NCBI GenBank assembly: GCA_041649155.1
Contig: JBAZNP010000001.1
Span: 673,183 to 737,182, forward strand
DNA length: 64,000 nucleotides
Origin: Patescibacteria group bacterium
Lineage (GTDB): Bacteria > Patescibacteriota > UBA1384 > XYA2-FULL-43-10 > 1-14-0-10-43-13
Direction of reading: 5' to 3'
Below, one piece after another: positions 3,894-61,662 of this stretch (positions are counted from its first letter, which is position 1; every line of letters begins with the position of its first letter). The notes under the pieces are model-generated. The model saw only the letters and a program-made list of their open reading frames with translations, was not told the DNA's origin and ran no database searches. The position numbers were made by a program, and so were the translations under genes.

Positions 3894-3974
3894 CGTCATT
3901 CCGGACTGTGGCTTGAGATCCGGAATCTATACAATAGTCGTGCTTCTGGATCCCAGATCAAGTCTGGGATGACA
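3894..3974. repeat. palindromic mini-element E2
   Basis: cgtcattccggactgtggcttgagatccggaatc...ggatcccagatcaagtctgggatgacag. Lies 14 nt upstream of the next ATG. Confidence 0.7.
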
Positions 3975-5147: not shown

Positions 5148-5217
5148 CGTCATTCCAGACTTGATCTGGAATCTATATAAAATAATTGGATCCTCGGATC
5201 AAGTCCGAGGATGACAC
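5148..5217. repeat. palindromic mini-element E3
   Basis: cgtcattccagacttgatctggaatc...ggatcctcggatcaagtccgaggatgacac. Lies 19 nt upstream of the ileS ATG. Confidence 0.7.
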
Positions 5218-11393: not shown

Positions 11394-13262
11394 ATGAGTA
11401 ATACAAATTTAAAAATTTCCATTGGGAGTCATAAAAAGATTTCCGATACAATAAAAATCCTGACTGAACTTGGATATATTCGTGAAGTGGTTCCAAACGA
11501 TCCTGGTACCTTTTCTGTTTCAGGCGGCAACCTGTCGATACATGCTGCCAACCATACAAATATTTTTATGGTTGAGTTTTTCGGTGATGAGATAGATCGA
11601 ATATTTGATTATGACAATGCAAGCAACAAGATACTAAAAAAGTATGAAGAAATCATAGTTTGCTCAAATTTCTTAGAGCTGGAAAATAACGTTAGAGTTT
11701 CGCCGGATGATTATGTCGTTCATGAAGATCATGGAATCGGAAGATTTTCATCAATTGAAACAAAAAATATAAATGGCGAAGATACTAAATATATATTAAT
11801 TGAATATTTGAATGGAGATGTACTTAACTTGCCATATGAATTTAAGAATAAATTATCTTCATATGTAGGAGTCGGCAGAAAAAAACCAAAATTAAGTAAA
11901 CTTGGCAGTGCAACTTGGCAAAGAACATATAAGAAAACGTATGAAAATATATTACTTTTAGCTAAGGAACTATTAAACATTTATGCCAAGCGAGAATTAA
12001 TAAATAGAGAAAAGTGGAAGATTAATAAAGACTGGAAAAAGGAAATTGAGAATACTTTTGGATATAGAGAAACGGAAGATCAGAAAAAAGCTTTGGATGA
12101 TATTTTTATTGATTTAGAAGGAGATAAGCCAATTGATCGTTTAGTTTGCGGTGATGTTGGATACGGAAAAACTGAAATTGCCATAAGAACCATAGCTCAA
12201 GCAGTCGCCAATGGCTATCAAGTTGCCATGCTTGTTCCGACTACAATTCTAGCTGAGCAGCATTATATAACTCTGAAAAACCGTTTTTGTAATCTACCAG
12301 TTTCAATAGAGCACCTGAGCCGTTTTATAAAAACTGAAGAGGAAAAAAAGATTTTAAATTCTTTAAAGAATGGCACAACGGATATAATTATAGGTACTCA
12401 TCGGTTATTTGGTGCAGATATTAAATTTAAGGAACTTGGCCTTCTGGTGATTGACGAAGAGCAAAAATTTGGCGTAAAGCATAAAGAAAAGTTGAAAAAG
12501 CTAAAACTCAATCTTAATATTTTATCTCTAACAGCGACACCAATTCCGCGCACTCTTTTCATGTCCTTGTCCGGCTTAAGGGATATTTCGCAAATTAGTT
12601 CTCCGCCTGCCGGAAGGCAAGAGGTTGGCACTAAGGTGGTTGTGTATAATGAAGAAGATATCATGAAATATGTGAATAGAGAAGTGGAGCGAAAAGGTCA
12701 GATTTACTATTTGCATAATGAAGTGAGAACGATTGAACCCAAGCGAAAAATATTACAAAAACTTTTTCCAAAGTTAAATATTGGCGTGGCACATGGGCAA
12801 ATGGGAGAGGTAGCGTTGGCAAAAGTTATGACAGACTTTGCTGAGAAAAAAATTGATTTGCTCGTTTGTTCTACGATTATCGAAAACGGTCTGGATTTGC
12901 CAAATGTTAATACGCTTATTGCCGACGACTCTGATAAGTTTGGTCTTTCCCAGCTTTATCAGATTAGGGGTAGAATTGGCCGAAGCAAAAAGAAAGCTTA
13001 CGCGCTATTCACTTTTCGGGACAAGAAAATTATCACAACCAATGCATACAAGCGTTTGAAGGCGATAGTTGAAAACACAAGATTAGGATCGGGCTATAGT
13101 ATCGCTTTGTCGGATTTAGAAATCCGTGGTGGAGGGAATATTCTAGGGAAAGAACAGCACGGCAATATGGAAGCAGTCGGTCTAGTTCTCTACACTAAGC
13201 TTTTAAATAAAGCGGTAGAAAACCTAAGAAAGAAGCAATCTAATAACAAAGTCATTAGATAA
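11394..13262 (+). CDS. mfd: transcription-repair coupling factor, short form lacking the UvrB-homology N-terminal domains
   Basis: RNAP-interacting motif DYVVHEDHGIGRF, helicase motifs GDVGYGKTE, LLVIDEEQKFG and QIRGRIGRS, and TRCF motif DLEIRGGGNILGKEQHG. Only 622 aa against about 1150 for full-length Mfd. Confidence 0.8.
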   Translation: MSNTNLKISIGSHKKISDTIKILTELGYIREVVPNDPGTFSVSGGNLSIHAANHTNIFMVEFFGDEIDRIFDYDNASNKILKKYEEIIVCSNFLELENNVRVSPDDYVVHEDHGIGRFSSIETKNINGEDTKYILIEYLNGDVLNLPYEFKNKLSSYVGVGRKKPKLSKLGSATWQRTYKKTYENILLLAKELLNIYAKRELINREKWKINKDWKKEIENTFGYRETEDQKKALDDIFIDLEGDKPIDRLVCGDVGYGKTEIAIRTIAQAVANGYQVAMLVPTTILAEQHYITLKNRFCNLPVSIEHLSRFIKTEEEKKILNSLKNGTTDIIIGTHRLFGADIKFKELGLLVIDEEQKFGVKHKEKLKKLKLNLNILSLTATPIPRTLFMSLSGLRDISQISSPPAGRQEVGTKVVVYNEEDIMKYVNREVERKGQIYYLHNEVRTIEPKRKILQKLFPKLNIGVAHGQMGEVALAKVMTDFAEKKIDLLVCSTIIENGLDLPNVNTLIADDSDKFGLSQLYQIRGRIGRSKKKAYALFTFRDKKIITTNAYKRLKAIVENTRLGSGYSIALSDLEIRGGGNILGKEQHGNMEAVGLVLYTKLLNKAVENLRKKQSNNKVIR

Positions 13263-13324: not shown

Positions 13325-13363
13325 CGTTGTGGCAAATATCGTCGATCGTGAGTTTTCAGCATA
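13325..13363. repeat. 40-nt conserved hairpin repeat R1 (core AAATATCGTCGATCGTGAGTTTTCAGCATAA)
   Basis: One of three near-identical copies (13325, 13953, 22752). The 24-nt core is identical and is flanked by the imperfect inverted repeat gttatgg.../...agcataa. Confidence 0.6.
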
Positions 13364-13388
13364 ATAAAAATTAACATATAATATAAAT

Positions 13389-13952
13389 ATGAGCAGTGAG
13401 ATAAAAAGACAAATTCAGCAACAAAAGGTTGGCAAGGTAGCTAAAACTGTTATGGAAGGTTTTCTAGAGGGAGTTTATTTTGCTATGGAAACCCTAGGGA
13501 GATTAAATGTTAATAGATATAGCATATATGGTTCTTTAAGAAAAGGAGCTTTTTCTGATTGGAGTGATACACAGCTTTCAATAAAAATAAAAGATGCAGT
13601 TAGAACAGGCTATTTAAAAATTGATTCAAATAATTCTATCGAGTTTACCGATAAAGCCAAGTTGCGAATAGTGGATGTTGTTACTTCTAATAATCTAAAG
13701 GATGGTAAGAATCGTTTTATTTCGTTTGATATTCCTGAAGAAAAAAGGTCTCAGAGAGACGGTTTTAGAAGAACTATTAAAAAAATGGGGTTTAGACAGA
13801 TACAAAAAAGTCTTTGGGTTTGCGACAGGAATATTGGTGATTTTATTGAGATTGCGAAAAAAGAATATGATGTTGAGAAATACGTCGCATACATTGTTTC
13901 GGAAAAATCAGACATCGATGATCACATCAAAACTATTATGAGTATGCGTTAG
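13389..13952 (+). CDS. hypothetical protein with C-terminal Cas2-like/VapD-like motif and a putative N-terminal winged-helix region
   Basis: C-terminal half FISFDIPEEKRSQRDGFRRTIKKMGFRQIQKSLWVC follows the Cas2 pattern (YDIsdd..rR..v.k.l..yG.RvQ.SVFeC). No CRISPR array is present in the window. TATAAT lies 8-13 nt upstream of the ATG (leaderless-type start). Confidence 0.4.
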   Translation: MSSEIKRQIQQQKVGKVAKTVMEGFLEGVYFAMETLGRLNVNRYSIYGSLRKGAFSDWSDTQLSIKIKDAVRTGYLKIDSNNSIEFTDKAKLRIVDVVTSNNLKDGKNRFISFDIPEEKRSQRDGFRRTIKKMGFRQIQKSLWVCDRNIGDFIEIAKKEYDVEKYVAYIVSEKSDIDDHIKTIMSMR

Positions 13953-13993
13953 TGTTATGGCAAATATCGTCGATCGTGAGTTTTTAGCACAAT
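13953..13993. repeat. hairpin repeat R2
   Basis: gttatggcaaatatcgtcgatcgtgagtttttagcacaat, starting 1 nt after the stop codon of the Cas2-like ORF. Confidence 0.6.
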
Positions 13994-16514: not shown

Positions 16515-16543
16515 GATCCCTCGACTTCGCTCGGGATGACAAG
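16515..16543. repeat. short palindromic element E5
   Basis: gatccctcgacttcgctcgggatgacaag, 22 nt upstream of the topA ATG. Confidence 0.5.
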
Positions 16544-22751: not shown

Positions 22752-22791
22752 GTTATGCTAAATATCGTCGATCGTGAATTTTCAGCATAAC
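22752..22791. repeat. hairpin repeat R3
   Basis: gttatgctaaatatcgtcgatcgtgaattttcagcataac has a perfect 8-bp inverted repeat around the conserved core. Starts 8 nt after the dus stop. Confidence 0.6.
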
Positions 22792-23341
22792 AATTGGGTA
22801 AGTTAGCTCTCAAATTGGTCTACTCGATACTGCTCATTGTTAGAATGGGGTGGTTTTTTTAATTTTGATATTGACAAAAATTTATAAATGTGATAAAGTA
22901 TGCAGTCGGTTAGTTAAAGCTAACTGGGCAAGCAATTTGAAAATTTTAAATTGAAAACTGGCTGGGATCTGGGGAAATTATGAGTGGCGGTTTTATTCGG
23001 TTGGTCGGCATTGTTGACCCCTTAAAAAATGTGGGTCTGGCCACGCCAACTTCCGACCACTTCTCACCCTTTTCTTGGCTAGTTTTCAACTTAAAATTAG
23101 AAGATTTTACAATAATCTTTGTTGGCAATAGTCAAAATTGTATGAAAGATTAGCGTAAAGGTTTTGATAAAAAAATAAAATGGTTTAGCGGGAGATGTAG
23201 TGATTTAAATCATTCATTTCTCGCTAAAGTAAAAAAATACTTTAGTGAGTTATATAAATGACCCATGGACACAGTGCCTCCCGATCCATGGGTGGCACTT
23301 TGATATAAAACGAATCAAAACGAAAAAATACATAGGAGGCT

Positions 23342-32244: not shown

Positions 32245-33480
32245 ATGGCATTTGAATTAATCAAAAAATTAGATAACGGAGTTCGGGTTGGAAAACTAAC
32301 AACGCCTCATGGAGAAATTGAGACGCCTTTTTTTATGCCGGTGGGCACAGTCGGTAGTGTTAAGGGTGTATCGCCAAATGAATTAAACGAATTGGGTGCT
32401 CAAATAGTTCTGTCTAATACTTATCATCTGTATTTGCGTCCAGGAGAAAAACTAATTAAAAAACTTGGTGGACTGCATCAGTTTATGAATTGGAATAGGC
32501 CAATACTTACCGACTCTGGCGGATACCAAGTCTTTTCTTTGGGAAAAGACAATTCTAAATTTCTAATTTCTAATGACAAATCAAATTACAAAACCCAAAT
32601 AACAAATGTCCAAACATCTTTGGTTAAAATTACTGAGGATGGGGTTGAATTTAAGTCGCATTTAGACGGAAGTAAGCATTTTTTTACTCCTGAGAAAGTA
32701 ATCCAAATTCAACTTGATTTAGGGGTGGATATCTTGATGCCGCTCGATGTTTGTCCCAGCGGGAAGGCAACTCGGGAGGAGATTGAAGAAGCTTGCAAGT
32801 TAACAATATCTTGGGCAAAGCGTTCCAGAAAATATTTTCTGGAACAAGTAGAAAGTAGAAAGCTGAAAGATAACAGGCCACTTCTTCACGGAATAGTCCA
32901 AGGGGGATTGTATGAAGATTTACGCAGATATTGCGCTAAAGAGCTTATTAACCTTGATTTTGATGGATACTCAGTCGGAGGGTTGGCAGTTGATTTTGAA
33001 ACTCGTGATATGTGGAAGACTGTAAAATTGATGGGAGAAATTCTTCCCGAAAACAAGCAGAGATATTTAATGGGGGTTGGAACTCCTGACGACATTATTA
33101 AAGCAACGAAATTAGGCATGGACATGTTTGATTGTGTTTTGCCGACAAGATTAGCTCGTCACGGATCGGTTTATGTTAAAAATTGTCATTCCCACAACAA
33201 CCTTTGTCATTCCCGCGAAGGCGGGAATCCAGAGCCTGGATCCCAGATCGAGTCTGGGATGACAGACCATTATAAACTTATCAATCTTTTAAATTCCAAA
33301 TACAAAGAGGACGGGGGAGTGATCGATGAAGAATGCGCCTGTCCGGCTTGTAAAGGGGGATTTAGCCGTGCTTACATTTCGCACCTTCTAAGATCCAAAG
33401 AAATATTGGGACTGCGTTTAGCAACACTGCATAATCTACATCAGTATTTAGAACTGATGAGGGAATTAAAAAGTGAATAA
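32245..33480 (+). CDS. tgt: queuine tRNA-ribosyltransferase carrying an in-frame palindromic-element insertion
   Basis: TPHGEIETPFFMPVGTVGSVKG, LTDSGGYQVFSL, and zinc site CACPACKGG...SHL. About 30 extra residues (KNCHSHNNLCHSREGGNPEPGSQIESGMTDH) sit where other TGTs are contiguous; these are encoded by element E6. TATAAT lies 11 nt upstream of the ATG. Confidence 0.9.
   Translation: MAFELIKKLDNGVRVGKLTTPHGEIETPFFMPVGTVGSVKGVSPNELNELGAQIVLSNTYHLYLRPGEKLIKKLGGLHQFMNWNRPILTDSGGYQVFSLGKDNSKFLISNDKSNYKTQITNVQTSLVKITEDGVEFKSHLDGSKHFFTPEKVIQIQLDLGVDILMPLDVCPSGKATREEIEEACKLTISWAKRSRKYFLEQVESRKLKDNRPLLHGIVQGGLYEDLRRYCAKELINLDFDGYSVGGLAVDFETRDMWKTVKLMGEILPENKQRYLMGVGTPDDIIKATKLGMDMFDCVLPTRLARHGSVYVKNCHSHNNLCHSREGGNPEPGSQIESGMTDHYKLINLLNSKYKEDGGVIDEECACPACKGGFSRAYISHLLRSKEILGLRLATLHNLHQYLELMRELKSE
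33185..33265. repeat. palindromic mini-element E6 inserted in-frame in tgt
   Basis: gtcattcccacaacaacctttgtcattcccgcgaaggcgggaatccagagcctggatcccagatcgagtctgggatgacag: same termini and the same second hairpin as E2. Confidence 0.7.
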
Positions 33481-39096: not shown

Positions 39097-40886
39097 TGTT
39101 ACAAAATACGGAAACAAAATCTAAGTCAGGATTACTGATGGACGCATCTGCTCATTTTAGTGAATCAGGAACTTCTGATAACTTTTTGGAGCTTCAAAAG
39201 GCTCTTAGCGCTGCTTCTGAGGCGGATAAAAATAAACTACGTGCAAGATATGCAGGTAAAGAAGGTTCTGCGGTCGAAGCGTCTCAAGAAAAAGGTATTG
39301 AGACCAGTGAGCAGGAAAAATTTGATGAATTGATGGAGGCTGTGAATAAGTTTGAGGAATTGGCCAAAGAGACTAAGAACATTGAAAAAGAACTTCAGGA
39401 AGCCGAAAGGGCTCATGATGAACATTATAGTAGCTATGCTGGGAAGATTACTTTGGCTGATCAAAATAGAGAGAGGGGATTGGTTACACTTAGAGCTGAA
39501 GTCGGACAAAAGCTCGAAGAAATGATTGTATTAAAGGGTGATATTCTAGACAAATTATCAGATATTAAATCTCATGAACTGAGGGCGAAAACATATGAGC
39601 GATTTGAAAGAAAGAAACCTGATGAAGTAGGAATGTCCAGTGAAGTAAAGTTGGAAACAAAATCCGACAAACATACAGATGATTTAAAGCATCGAACACT
39701 TAATCATAAGGCTAGGGAAATAGTTAAGTCTAATCTTGAAAAAATAGCAAAAAAGAAAACAGAAGCGGAAAAAATTGTCGTAGAAGTGGCCCCTGAAAAT
39801 GTTGAGCCTTCTGTACAGGAAGAAACCGCTGTCGCAAATGATTTGAAAGAAGAAGAAATTAGAAATAATTCAGAAGATCATCTTGCGCCTGGGATTCAAA
39901 TTGGCCGAGAAGAGGAGAGTGAAACACCTAAACCAGAAGAAGTTCAGACTAAGTCTCCAAAGGATATTATTGAACAAAAAGCGGTTATTGATATTCCTGA
40001 ACAAAAACCCCAGCCAGTTGCAGAAAATAAATCTGAAATTAAAGACAAACCATCCGAACCTCCGGTTGAAATCATGGAAATTGGACCAGATGGCGATCCT
40101 GTTAGCGTTACAGATAATGAAGGAGACTTTAGGGAAGACGAGATAACTTTTGTTGATGGTTCGGCTCAGCAGAACATTCCACAATCAAAAGTGGGGGAAA
40201 GTGAAAAGCAAAAAGTAGATTCTTCAGAATTTATCGATAAAATCAGAGAAAAACAATCCGAAATTGCAGAAAGAATGGGACTGGAACTTAAGAAACCAGT
40301 TGCCGAACCGATAAGGAAAATTGACGACTTTTTGCCGCCAACATCCAGAATTGAACAGGCAGCGGAAACAATAGAGCAAGATTTAAATAAACCAATCGCA
40401 GCTGCAAAAGCAGAACCAATTATTGATGAGAAGACTGTGAGTTCTATTCCTGTTATCCCCGAGAAGTCGGGGATCCAAGATAGTGATAGATTAGTAGATT
40501 CCCGCCTACGCGGGAATGACAATGTGGAGGGCGGGAATGACAATGCGAAAATGGCTGAATCGGACGATCAAATATTAACTCAAAATATTCAAACAGCAGA
40601 GCCCGTTGTCCCTGAGCAGAAAATCGAACCGGTTCAGCCGGTTACGGAAGAAGTGGGTAATAATGATGCAGGCAATATGATAGATATCAAGCCGGCAATC
40701 GAGGCAAAAGAAATTCAATTAGAGCAGCCTTTGCCAGAGCAAAAGAGGGGATTCTTCGGGAGAATTTTTGGCGGGAATAACGCTGATAGGCATGGTGCTG
40801 AAGTGATAGCTGGAAAGGGTGATGAATTAACCGCTGACCACATACATCAAATATTGGGTGCTAATGAAGAGAAAGAAGCGGCATAG
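39096..40886 (+). CDS. hypothetical charged/low-complexity protein (596 aa) with an in-frame palindromic-element insertion
   Basis: Coiled-coil-like E/K-rich sequence. Element E7 encodes ...IPEKSGIQDSDRLVDSRLRGNDNVEGGNDNAKM. Confidence 0.4.
   Translation: MLQNTETKSKSGLLMDASAHFSESGTSDNFLELQKALSAASEADKNKLRARYAGKEGSAVEASQEKGIETSEQEKFDELMEAVNKFEELAKETKNIEKELQEAERAHDEHYSSYAGKITLADQNRERGLVTLRAEVGQKLEEMIVLKGDILDKLSDIKSHELRAKTYERFERKKPDEVGMSSEVKLETKSDKHTDDLKHRTLNHKAREIVKSNLEKIAKKKTEAEKIVVEVAPENVEPSVQEETAVANDLKEEEIRNNSEDHLAPGIQIGREEESETPKPEEVQTKSPKDIIEQKAVIDIPEQKPQPVAENKSEIKDKPSEPPVEIMEIGPDGDPVSVTDNEGDFREDEITFVDGSAQQNIPQSKVGESEKQKVDSSEFIDKIREKQSEIAERMGLELKKPVAEPIRKIDDFLPPTSRIEQAAETIEQDLNKPIAAAKAEPIIDEKTVSSIPVIPEKSGIQDSDRLVDSRLRGNDNVEGGNDNAKMAESDDQILTQNIQTAEPVVPEQKIEPVQPVTEEVGNNDAGNMIDIKPAIEAKEIQLEQPLPEQKRGFFGRIFGGNNADRHGAEVIAGKGDELTADHIHQILGANEEKEAA
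40455..40545. repeat. palindromic mini-element E7, in-frame inside the CDS
   Basis: atccccgagaagtcggggatc ... attcccgcctacgcgggaatgacaatgtggagggcgggaatgacaatg has the same arms as E6 (cccgcgaaggcgggaat). Confidence 0.6.
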
Positions 40887-44178: not shown

Positions 44179-45213
44179 ATGACAACAATAAAGAATTTTA
44201 GTCCCTACAAAATTGTTAAAAAGGCAATGGAAAGCTTAAAACCAAATGAGGTTAAAGTTATTGCAGGTCGTTTTGGTATTGATGAAGACAGAAAGACTCT
44301 TTCCTCTATTGGTAAAGAATTAAATCTTTCGAGAGAAAGAATTCGTCAAATTGAAAAAGAGGGACTTAAAAAGCTTGCATCTAAAATCGTCGATCGTAAA
44401 AATGAATATCTTGAATTAATCATTCAATCATTTAAGCAAAGCGGTGGAATTGCCAAGCATGAAAATATCGCAAATAAGTTTTTGGAAGAGAGTTTGAAAT
44501 CAAATAAAAATGAATTTAATGCTTTGCATTTGATTTTCTTTCTCATGCCGGAACTTAAGAAGATCGATAAGACTAGAGAACTGGAAGCAAGCTGGGTCAT
44601 TGCTTCTTTATCTAAAGATGAAGTTCTTGGAATTATTAATAATTGGGTTGATCATCTACAAAAAGTGAAAAAACCAACTACGATAGATATTCTCGTAAAA
44701 GAAAATCCTAGTCATAATAAATATGAAATGACCTTTTTGTCCGAATTACCTTACATCAGTAAAAAGCTGGTTAAAACAGAAAATGACTTTATTGGATTAG
44801 CATCTTGGCCTGAAGTAAATCCTAAAAATGTGCGCGATAAAATTTACTATATCCTAAAAAAAGAAGGTAAACCTGTTCACTTTGAAATAATTGCAAAGAA
44901 GATTAATGAAGAAAAATTTTCAAAGAAAAAAGTTGTAAAAGCCACTGTTCACAATGAATTAATTGCTGACGACAGATTTATTCTAGTAGGCAGAGGAATT
45001 TATGCACTTAGAGAATGGGGATACGAGCCCGGAACAGTGAGAGATATTATAAAAAATATTTTAGATATTCATAATCATTCTATGAAGGTTGATGAAATTG
45101 TTTCAGAAGTTCTAAAACAAAGAACTGTTAAGAAAAACACTATTTTGATTAACTTGCAAACAAAGTCGGATTTTAAAAAAGCCGGCAAAGATAGCTACGA
45201 ACTCGCTAAGTAA
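44179..45213 (+). CDS. sigma-70 region-4-like HTH protein with 270-aa C-terminal extension (not a canonical sigma factor)
   Basis: VKVIAGRFGIDEDRKTLSSIGKELNLSRERIRQIEKEGLKKLASKI matches the sigma70 region 4.2 HTH. No region 2. Start overlaps the upstream stop. Confidence 0.5.
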   Translation: MTTIKNFSPYKIVKKAMESLKPNEVKVIAGRFGIDEDRKTLSSIGKELNLSRERIRQIEKEGLKKLASKIVDRKNEYLELIIQSFKQSGGIAKHENIANKFLEESLKSNKNEFNALHLIFFLMPELKKIDKTRELEASWVIASLSKDEVLGIINNWVDHLQKVKKPTTIDILVKENPSHNKYEMTFLSELPYISKKLVKTENDFIGLASWPEVNPKNVRDKIYYILKKEGKPVHFEIIAKKINEEKFSKKKVVKATVHNELIADDRFILVGRGIYALREWGYEPGTVRDIIKNILDIHNHSMKVDEIVSEVLKQRTVKKNTILINLQTKSDFKKAGKDSYELAK

Positions 45214-48617: not shown

Positions 48618-48704
48618 TCATTTCGACCCCGTGCCCGTGAAACGGTTGGAGAAATCTTAATTAAGATGGGTTGAAAGATCCCTCCACGTTGGTTGGGATG
48701 ACAA
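48618..48704. repeat. palindromic mini-element E8
   Basis: tgtcatttcgaccccgtgcccgtgaaacggttgg...gatccctccacgttggttgggatgacaa. The terminal part is the reverse complement of E9. Confidence 0.6.
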
Positions 48705-55533: not shown

Positions 55534-55559
55534 GTCATCCCGACCAACGTGGAGGGATC
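55534..55559. repeat. short palindromic element E9
   Basis: gtcatcccgaccaacgtggagggatc is the reverse complement of the E8 terminal half. Lies about 50 nt upstream of the rmuC start on the - strand, followed by the GC palindrome cctgcctgccggcaggcagg, which also occurs at 40905-40930. Confidence 0.55.
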
Positions 55560-61562: not shown

Positions 61563-61662
61563 CGTCATTCCGACTCCTTGGCTTTGTCCAAGGATGGAGG
61601 AATCTTTTAATTAATTAAAACTACTATAAAAAGATCCCTTCATTTCAGTCGGGATGACAAAG
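61563..61662. repeat. palindromic mini-element E10 (two halves)
   Basis: cgtcattccgactccttggctttgtccaaggatggaggaatc ... gatcccttcatttcagtcgggatgacaaag. Lies 90 nt upstream of the giant gene start on the - strand. Confidence 0.6.

Follow-up and report, generated by a model that had tools for sequence, protein, structure and literature searches.

A stretch of 64,000 nt from the genome of a Patescibacteria group bacterium (contig JBAZNP010000001.1, positions 673,183 to 737,182; this whole stretch is called the window) encodes a 187-aa protein whose gene is bracketed by two copies of a ~40-nt repeat. The closest described counterpart of this protein is PaaX (PDB 8a39, 3L09), a repressor that responds to phenylacetyl-CoA in E. 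coli and Pseudomonas. The E. coli PaaX operator reads TGATTC(N27)GAATCA, and PaaX represses its own promoter via steric hindrance of RNA polymerase (PMC9493321). Inducer binding has been assigned to the PaaX C-terminus, the Cas2-like domain defined by Pfam has been termed a dimerisation motif, and according to the same review no PaaX-DNA complex has been solved (PMC9493321). The window protein resembles PaaX in having a winged helix followed by domain PF20803 in the same register, GFRQIQKSLW at residues 134-143 facing GFGALAPSLM at residues 134-143 of E. coli PaaX. The repeats resemble the PaaX operator in their inverted short arms, ~24-27 bp apart in a total of ~39 bp, the half-site centres being here about three helical turns apart. 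In both cases a site overlaps the gene's own promoter, with repression shown for PaaX and only expected by analogy for the window protein. Unlike PaaX, the window protein lacks the domain PaaX_C and stays far below the PaaX equivalog cut-off (15 versus 264.55 bits for TIGR02277 of NCBIfam). No gene of phenylacetate catabolism (paa) is present among its neighbours, which are the housekeeping genes L11, mfd, a gene for a PsbP_2-like secreted protein, dprA and topA. Its unit also differs by a second putative site after the stop codon, by an invariant CGNNCG centre of the sites and by a retained Cas2-type aspartate.

Three other kinds of system bear comparison with this locus. The window protein shares with Cas2 and VapD a ferredoxin-like fold, the aspartate ending strand beta-1 and a Q-x-S-(L/V)-(W/F) strand, but it is fused to a winged helix, it does not reach the threshold of the Cas2 equivalog, and neither an antitoxin, nor an array of clustered regularly interspaced short palindromic repeats (CRISPR), nor cas1 among the families listed for 40 large ORFs, was found with it. 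In the Cas1-Cas2 complex the Cas2 dimer lies along a duplex of ~23 bp, which is near the 24-bp inter-arm distance of the repeats, by analogy only. The systems formed by repetitive extragenic palindromes and their associated tyrosine transposases (REP/RAYT), as well as IS200, likewise combine a single-copy gene flanked by presumably recognised palindromes with dispersed intergenic copies, in a compact unit of ~0.7 kb. The window protein, however, is no HUH/Y1 enzyme, its dispersed sites occur about once per 55 kb instead of in hundreds of copies, the copies flanking the gene are mostly direct and not inverted, and there is no sign of repeat proliferation. Finally, imperfect palindromes that have GTT...AAC-like ends and lie close on both sides of an open reading frame (ORF) recall integron cassettes and their attC sites. 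The latter are 57-141 nt long with variable centres, whereas the window sites are 40 bp long with a conserved centre; moreover, no integrase or cassette array accompanies the gene, inheritance is vertical, and empty sites hold no repeat.

We propose that the gene encodes an autoregulated minimal DNA-binding protein of the PaaX family bracketed by its own split-palindrome operators, a reading to which we give a probability of roughly 0.6. The unit made of a gene between two palindromes recurs across many Patescibacteria and seems to be undescribed, as we found none in the searchable literature.

The protein and its family

The gene occupies positions 13389..13952 of the + strand. Its product is 100% identical to a protein annotated as hypothetical in a metagenome-assembled Patescibacteria genome. 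It matched PaaX_M (PF20803, "PaaX central Cas2-like domain") over residues 105-178 with 59.2 bits for a Pfam cut-off of 24 (E 4.3e-16). The scores obtained with Cas2 models were borderline or lower: 23.9 versus 23.8 bits for PF09827, 19.4 versus 24.5 bits for the Cas2 equivalog TIGR01573 of NCBIfam, and an E of 3e-5 for the Cas2 model of PADLOC. Pfam contained no match for PaaX_C, the protein stopping at residue 187, nor for a winged helix-turn-helix, and no HUH, tyrosine-recombinase or serine-recombinase domain was found in the protein with the same database.

The winged helix comes from an AlphaFold2 model, built from 34 homologues with a mean predicted local distance difference test score (pLDDT) of 85, and from structure comparison with Foldseek. 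The model contains a winged helix at about residues 20-100, with three helices and a beta wing at 21-86 and a predicted recognition helix at 60-72, followed by a C-terminal ferredoxin-like beta-alpha-beta-beta-alpha-beta domain at about residues 105-185. No PDB entry reached E <= 0.001 in Foldseek. Partial matches were best to winged helices of DtxR/IdeR for the N-terminal half and to the Cas2 structures 6jhz, 5zyf and 3exc for the C-terminal half. Over the whole chain, the alignment to E. coli PaaX (8a39) covered 183 columns with a query-normalised TM-score of 0.49, and the one to the PaaX-like Rv0674 (3kfw) spanned 133 columns; a sequence search of the PDB gave a weak match to Cas2 only. The original prediction had described a Cas2-like C-terminal half and a DNA-binding N-terminal half, and both descriptions hold, the model and Foldseek agreeing with the profiles. 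Based on the Pfam and NCBIfam scores, the model and the Foldseek alignments, the protein is PaaX-like, with the first two PaaX domains present and the third, C-terminal one absent.

The family is large, with 1287 clusters (50% identity) at E <= 1e-10 in a profile search of 1.84 billion representative proteins. Almost all of the 150 best matches are 140-230 aa long, mainly 170-200 aa, and PF20803 was present in 57/57 homologues. Mean pairwise identity is far higher in the Cas2-like half (59%) than in the winged-helix half (31%). The former carries the conserved motifs SFDIPE and IQKSLW(V), and both the Cas2-type aspartate of SFDIPE, which aligns with the aspartate ending beta-1 of Cas2 SSO8090, and the IQKSLW strand were invariant in 34 family members. 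Some public databases label homologues "CRISPR-associated endonuclease Cas2", so the family needs re-annotation.

Palindromic sites around the gene and its homologues

The ~40-nt block occurs in the window in three copies, all on the + strand, at 13326-13365, 13954-13993 and 22752-22791. A 23-nt core (AAATATCGTCGATCGTGAGTTTT) is exact at 13334-13356 and 13962-13984 and has one mismatch at 22760-22782, while an 18-nt core (AAATATCGTCGATCGTGA) is invariant in all three. A match to the core appeared in 0/100 dinucleotide shuffles of the window, and a relaxed search of the whole 64 kb returned these three sites alone; a near-match within a coding region at 44384 has no arm symmetry. The upstream copy, a putative operator, has the arms GTTGTG(GC) and (AG)CATAAT around a CGATCG centre at 13343-13348. 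The downstream copy has the arms GTTATG(GC) and (AG)CACAAT and begins 1 nt past the stop codon of the 187-aa ORF; neither a -10 box nor a T-tract follows it. The third, solitary copy (GTTATGCT...AGCATAAC) is the most symmetric, with 12/17 complementary arm positions, and starts 7 nt past the stop codon of dus (PF01207, dihydrouridine synthase). The original prediction had thus placed the direct copies around the ORF, the repeat after its stop codon and the third copy after dus correctly, but not the upstream core, which it set 25 nt before the start codon: copy 1 ends 23 nt and its core 32 nt before the ATG.

The repeat had also been called a conserved hairpin. It is indeed a conserved 40-nt block but not a strong hairpin: the RNA folds of the three copies (+ strand) reach -4.3, -6.0 and -10 kcal/mol and shuffled sequences fold equally well. 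Pairing is limited to the outer 6-8 nt, as between GTTATGCT and AGCATAAC in copy 3. It takes place between the arms GTTRTG/CAYAAY, the central 24 nt being asymmetric and degenerate compared with the perfect palindrome of relatives, hence the appearance of a hairpin with a conserved loop and the weak single-strand fold. Searched against Rfam, the window had no match reaching the gathering score, and the surroundings of the repeats had none even at E <= 1.

We compared the window with 80 metagenomic loci encoding homologues of the protein (727 kb; 81 loci with the window). In 39/81 loci, a ~38-40-bp palindrome centred on CGATCG was present on both sides of the gene according to a strict gapless score, and at least 11 further loci had centres CGTACG, CGGCCG or CGACCG on one or both sides. 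At some loci the contig ends short of the expected position of the palindrome; altogether, the proportion of homologous loci with a gene tightly bracketed by two palindromes lies between about one half and three quarters. In CGATCG sites no more than 250 nt away from the gene, 11-18/18 arm positions are complementary, as compared with 1-9 for background CGATCG; a dozen real extra copies stand out from this background in the 727 kb.

The arms covary symmetrically. In 102 unique sites, positions 10-16 from the centre were 91% Watson-Crick paired, versus 32% after shuffling (maximum 41% in 1000 shuffles), and yet their sequence is not conserved between lineages, each position showing all four pair types. 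The inner positions 1-9, rich in A/T and semi-conserved, are only 77% paired. Among the mismatches of these sites there was no excess of G:T over A:C (41 versus 54), and those of the outer stem were mostly non-wobble, which argues against a hairpin formed by the sense-strand RNA.

When the two copies of a locus are asymmetric, they form direct pairs in 17 loci and inverted pairs in 4, and asymmetric sites do not keep a constant orientation towards the gene (it is opposite in L085, L104, L059 and L067). Solitary sites occur about once per 55 kb, most of them with the arms of the local gene-flanking sites, and some lie between divergent genes (L068:5563, L079:12279). A better pairing of the left arm of copy 1 with the right arm of copy 2, seen in the window as well as in L044, led us to consider the copies as attL and attR, but this rests on one position per locus and is also undercut by the perfect cis compensation in L061 and by the case of L071, which is an inverted copy. 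A scan with the 18-nt core of a collection of genome contigs that does not include the source genome gave 27 matches for ~17 expected by chance (hand estimate), with one true relative in Berkelbacteria (MEZY01000056, L006:125-240, minus strand). There, two tandem sites with the same core and different covarying arms directly follow the stop codon of obg, and the sequence reaches ~125 nt beyond them.

A promoter-like site lies at 13353..13382 (+), with -35 TTTTCA at 13353-13358, a spacer of 18 nt and -10 TATAAT at 13377-13382 (10/12 matches). The -35 element is located inside the right half of the upstream copy and the ATG comes 6 nt past TATAAT, so that the 187-aa gene appears to be transcribed, judging from these positions, into a leaderless or nearly leaderless mRNA. 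By eye, many homologous loci are laid out alike, with the palindrome followed by TATAAT and, after 6-7 nt, by the ATG, which points there too to leaderless mRNAs from promoters with a site-covered -35 and spacer. A -10-like hexamer followed the palindrome in 30/51 upstream versus 19/53 downstream copies, without clear separation, and the recurrence of this layout thus rests on inspection more than on statistics.

Both palindromes are tight against the PaaX-like gene and not against its neighbours: the 3' edge of the upstream one lies at a median of ~20 nt from the ATG and the start of the downstream one at a median of ~20 nt past the stop codon. The gene after the downstream palindrome is convergent in 21/51 loci and is otherwise mostly 100-300 nt away. 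At least 5 T in the 8 nt after the stem were found in 6% of downstream copies, the mean T content being that of the background, and a terminator scan did not call the repeats. Lacking T-tracts, the downstream copies are not canonical terminators, nor are they, in the window at least, where no -10 box follows, promoter operators.

Inheritance and loss of the unit

There is no synteny across the family (347 neighbours fell into 247 clusters), gene order being kept within lineages only. Within the lineage of the window, mfd lies upstream and the PsbP_2-like gene and dprA downstream in both the window and L028. In L111, mfd is upstream and dprA further downstream of the unit, and in L029 and L030 mfd is upstream and the contigs end inside the PaaX-like gene. 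The unit has remained next to mfd over Mfd identities ranging from 87% to 60%. The gene and its palindromes are absent from the closest relative found (L108, Mfd 93% identical) and from L109/L110 (80%), where the PsbP_2-like gene follows 57-86 nt after mfd. The ORF is thus missing from close relatives, as the original prediction had wondered, but not from between its repeats, which are missing too: no solo repeat is left, and the deletion edges lie outside the repeats without coinciding with them.

In the matrix of Mfd identities each relative without the module is sister to a genome that carries it, so that ancestral presence followed by two losses would be the parsimonious history. Protein pairs at least 70% identical mostly have common neighbours (32/39 sides), no second copy of the gene occurs within any fetched locus, and no relatives of the 187-aa protein were found on viral contigs. 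From the clean losses, the common neighbours, the single copy per locus and the absence of viral relatives, we conclude that the unit is dispensable and not recently mobile. The mobile cassette that the original prediction had entertained is not supported, given the stable position between mfd and dprA, the lack of viral relatives and the empty relatives without solo repeat.

In two pairs of metagenomic loci that are 92-99% identical, homology breaks off next to the downstream palindrome. In L063:4826/L064:8425 it stops at the outer edge of the palindrome and a 4-5-kb segment is replaced, while in L038:6587/L040:2299 it is lost 16 nt past the palindrome, with none further before the loci end. 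These breaks could reflect recombination at this place, a variable island or an assembly artefact.

The Mfd homologue of the window (11394-13262) has 622 aa, a short form common to more than 100 Patescibacteria relatives; Mfd of E. coli has ~1150 aa. The C-terminal tail of the short Mfd differs in the relatives without the PaaX-like module.

Putative autoregulation and the alternatives

In our preferred reading, the 40-nt repeats are the putative cognate sites of the protein, each with two lineage-specific arms of ~7 bp placed ~24 bp apart. The two winged helices of a dimer would read the arms, and the conserved Cas2-like dimer core would lie over the semi-conserved A/T-rich middle and its invariant CGNNCG centre. 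This arrangement is suggested by the parallel between a variable winged helix and variable arms on the one hand, and a conserved Cas2-like half and a conserved centre on the other. As the upstream site covers the -35 element and the spacer of the gene's own promoter, binding there would autoregulate transcription, the likeliest mode being repression via occlusion of RNA polymerase, like that by PaaX at the Px promoter. The downstream site may be a second operator looping out the ~0.6-kb gene, or a protein roadblock or insulator, and the solitary sites could be further targets. Among the options raised by the original prediction, a regulatory cassette is thus the one that fits best, given the PaaX-type scale of the sites and the overlap of the upstream copy with the -35 element.

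Comparison of arms and helices within the mfd-linked lineage supports such a pairing. The window and L111 have arms of the GTTATG type and a common helix motif (K/N)DAV(R/K)TGYL; L029 also has GTTATG-type arms, its helix being read from a presumed equivalent protein only. Different arms go with different helices in L028 (TGACGT and REMARVGYI) and L030 (CTTCGGTA and YDLERTGYV). In addition, two paralogues ~150 kb apart on the 207-kb contig Ga0172380_10000078 (L060 and L068) each have their own palindrome (CTTCCCCAAATATCGTCGATCG... and ATACCCGAAAATGAGACGATCG..., respectively), and the local arms recur in most solitary sites.

Several observations weigh against autoregulation by a symmetric dimer. 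The global correlations between proteins and sites are weak (partial r about 0.13-0.14), though in the expected direction, and adjacency, homology and co-variation are what the putative link between the two is drawn from. It is unusual for a regulator to have its best sites around its own gene only and to be lost from close relatives, the downstream palindrome has no regulatory rationale, and the genes adjoining solitary sites are heterogeneous, with no common function. The asymmetry of the central 24 nt, found in all three window copies and in the homologous site of L029, is left unexplained by a symmetric homodimer. The near-perfect complementarity of the outer arms would be equally expected from selection for a DNA or RNA hairpin or a cruciform. 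Between the two copies of one locus, 9 compensated double changes were counted versus 28 single ones, and such double changes would not obviously be required by a symmetric dimer; templated correction within quasi-palindromes could yield such a pattern without selection. As for the protein, Foldseek matches it only weakly to E. coli PaaX over the full length (E 0.11), and no more than 10 residues were aligned in a profile comparison with the E. coli PaaX sequence, for which reason catalytic positions were compared with those of E. coli PaaX in a manual alignment.

If autoregulation is correct, a candidate cognate DNA site could be read straight from each genome of this PaaX-like family, since it flanks the gene on both sides, in organisms with small genomes (the source contig is <0.8 Mb) for which we know of no experimentally characterised transcription factor. 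These loci would provide ready protein/site pairs for studying PaaX-type recognition of half-sites three helical turns apart, and could show if a Cas2-like dimer contacts DNA duplexes in a setting other than CRISPR adaptation. Given its conserved Cas2-type acidic residue, the family is furthermore a candidate for testing the descent of PaaX-like proteins from an active Cas2/VapD-like nuclease.

The alternative that survives best, although we consider it unlikely, is that the protein is a nuclease or recombinase acting on its own flanking repeats, its Cas2-like domain cutting at or near CGNNCG in extruded cruciforms or hairpins. In that case the unit and its few dispersed copies would form a repeat system, selfish or domesticated, of the REP/RAYT or IS200 kind, or the unit would be an excisable cassette. 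This could account for the invariance of the Cas2-type aspartate and of the IQKSLW strand, which align with Cas2 SSO8090 and whose E. coli PaaX counterparts are LLLLSEG for SFDIPE and LAPSLM for QKSLW. It could also account for the compactness of the ~0.7-kb IS200-like unit with both repeats tight on the ORF, the prevalence of direct over inverted pairs, the dispersed solo copies, the presence or absence of the unit among close relatives, the homology breaks located either at the downstream palindrome or 16 nt further on, and the hairpin-style compensated changes between copies of one locus. Against it stand the long-term position of the unit beside mfd and dprA with its parsimonious two-loss history, the deletion edges outside the repeats in relatives that keep no solo palindrome, the lack of a second gene copy together with the neighbours common to similar proteins, the lack of viral relatives, the rarity of solo copies and the absence of any HUH, tyrosine-recombinase or serine-recombinase domain. 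Positioned over CGNNCG by the winged helices, a Cas2-like dimer could, by analogy with prespacers, use the 24 bp between the arms as a ruler in order to nick, cut or recombine the palindromes around its own gene and those at a few other places; that the protein would be an active site-specific nuclease or recombination factor of this type, and not just a repressor, seems to us quite improbable. If true, this would be a Cas2-fold repeat-gene-repeat system, either a possible relative of the module from which CRISPR adaptation arose or a system of the REP/RAYT kind found in Patescibacteria only.

Action at the level of RNA appears similarly doubtful. Cas2 and VapD have been reported as RNases, and the transcripts of mfd, dus and the PaaX-like gene could end in repeat hairpins which the protein would bind or process, thereby controlling mRNA stability or termination. 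All three window copies and both copies of L006 are located just past stop codons in the sense orientation of the upstream gene, the downstream copy is tight on the stop codon in most loci, the outer stems covary, and the stem of window copy 1 is held on the + strand only through G-U pairs. However, besides the lack of G:T excess and the mostly non-wobble mismatches of the outer stem, asymmetric sites are not constantly oriented, solo sites occur between divergent genes, and the upstream copy would precede the transcription start if the promoter call is right; moreover, the window copies fold no better than shuffles and belong to no Rfam family.

We regard as very unlikely that the protein is a standalone toxin of the Cas2/VapD type, as the original prediction had considered, or an orphan component of CRISPR adaptation. 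The borderline scores of the Cas2 models and the annotation of homologues as Cas2 in some databases would be in its favour, but PaaX_M is by far the best model and TIGR01573 remains below its cut-off. The conserved Cas2-type aspartate leaves some room for a toxin-like reading, but the domain is fused to a winged helix in a two-domain PaaX-like protein without partner gene. No antitoxin-like small ORF is adjacent and the neighbours differ between loci. No tandem or CRISPR-like array was detected in the 64 kb of the window, as already stated by the original prediction, and neither cas1 nor any other Cas family was matched by the 40 large ORFs of the window among the first 25/51 Pfam and 25/30 PADLOC families listed.

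That the repeats adjoin the ORF incidentally, being either generic intergenic repeats or ordinary terminators independent of the protein, as their position after stop codons, their capacity to form stems and the existence of another abundant hairpin family in this genome might suggest, is largely refuted by association statistics and hardly credible, since T-tracts are absent (the 6% mentioned above) and the terminator scan negative, only 3 copies exist per 64 kb, and at up to about three quarters of the homologous loci the gene is accompanied on either side by the same lineage-specific palindrome, as opposed to the common terminators unrelated to the ORF that the original prediction had named as its possible refutation.

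This other hairpin family, GTCATYCC-[stem-loop]-GGRATC, is short (24-33 nt) and unrelated to the 40-nt palindrome, than which it is far commoner. Its 13 copies in the window are located at 2356-2380, 2398-2422, 3895-3927, 3949-3973, 5149-5173, 5189-5215, 16515-16540, 33206-33229, 33239-33263, 40497-40520, 48677-48702, 55534-55559 and 61633-61658, and one more lies at about 6938-6965 of L111. These hairpins, which often form closely spaced intergenic pairs on opposite strands, may be REP-like or terminator-like.

The solitary copy after dus is followed by a 540-nt gap without convincing ORF (22800-23340), to which no Rfam family matches. It contains a strong promoter-like site at 22871-22899 (TTGACA, 17 nt, TG-extended TAAAGT) and may hold a long leader or the gene of a small RNA not yet described. 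Finally, three ORFs at 447-1525 and nearby have methylation motifs of the type IV pilin kind at their N-termini, with dprA close; type IV pilins and dprA are parts of the competence and pilus machinery.

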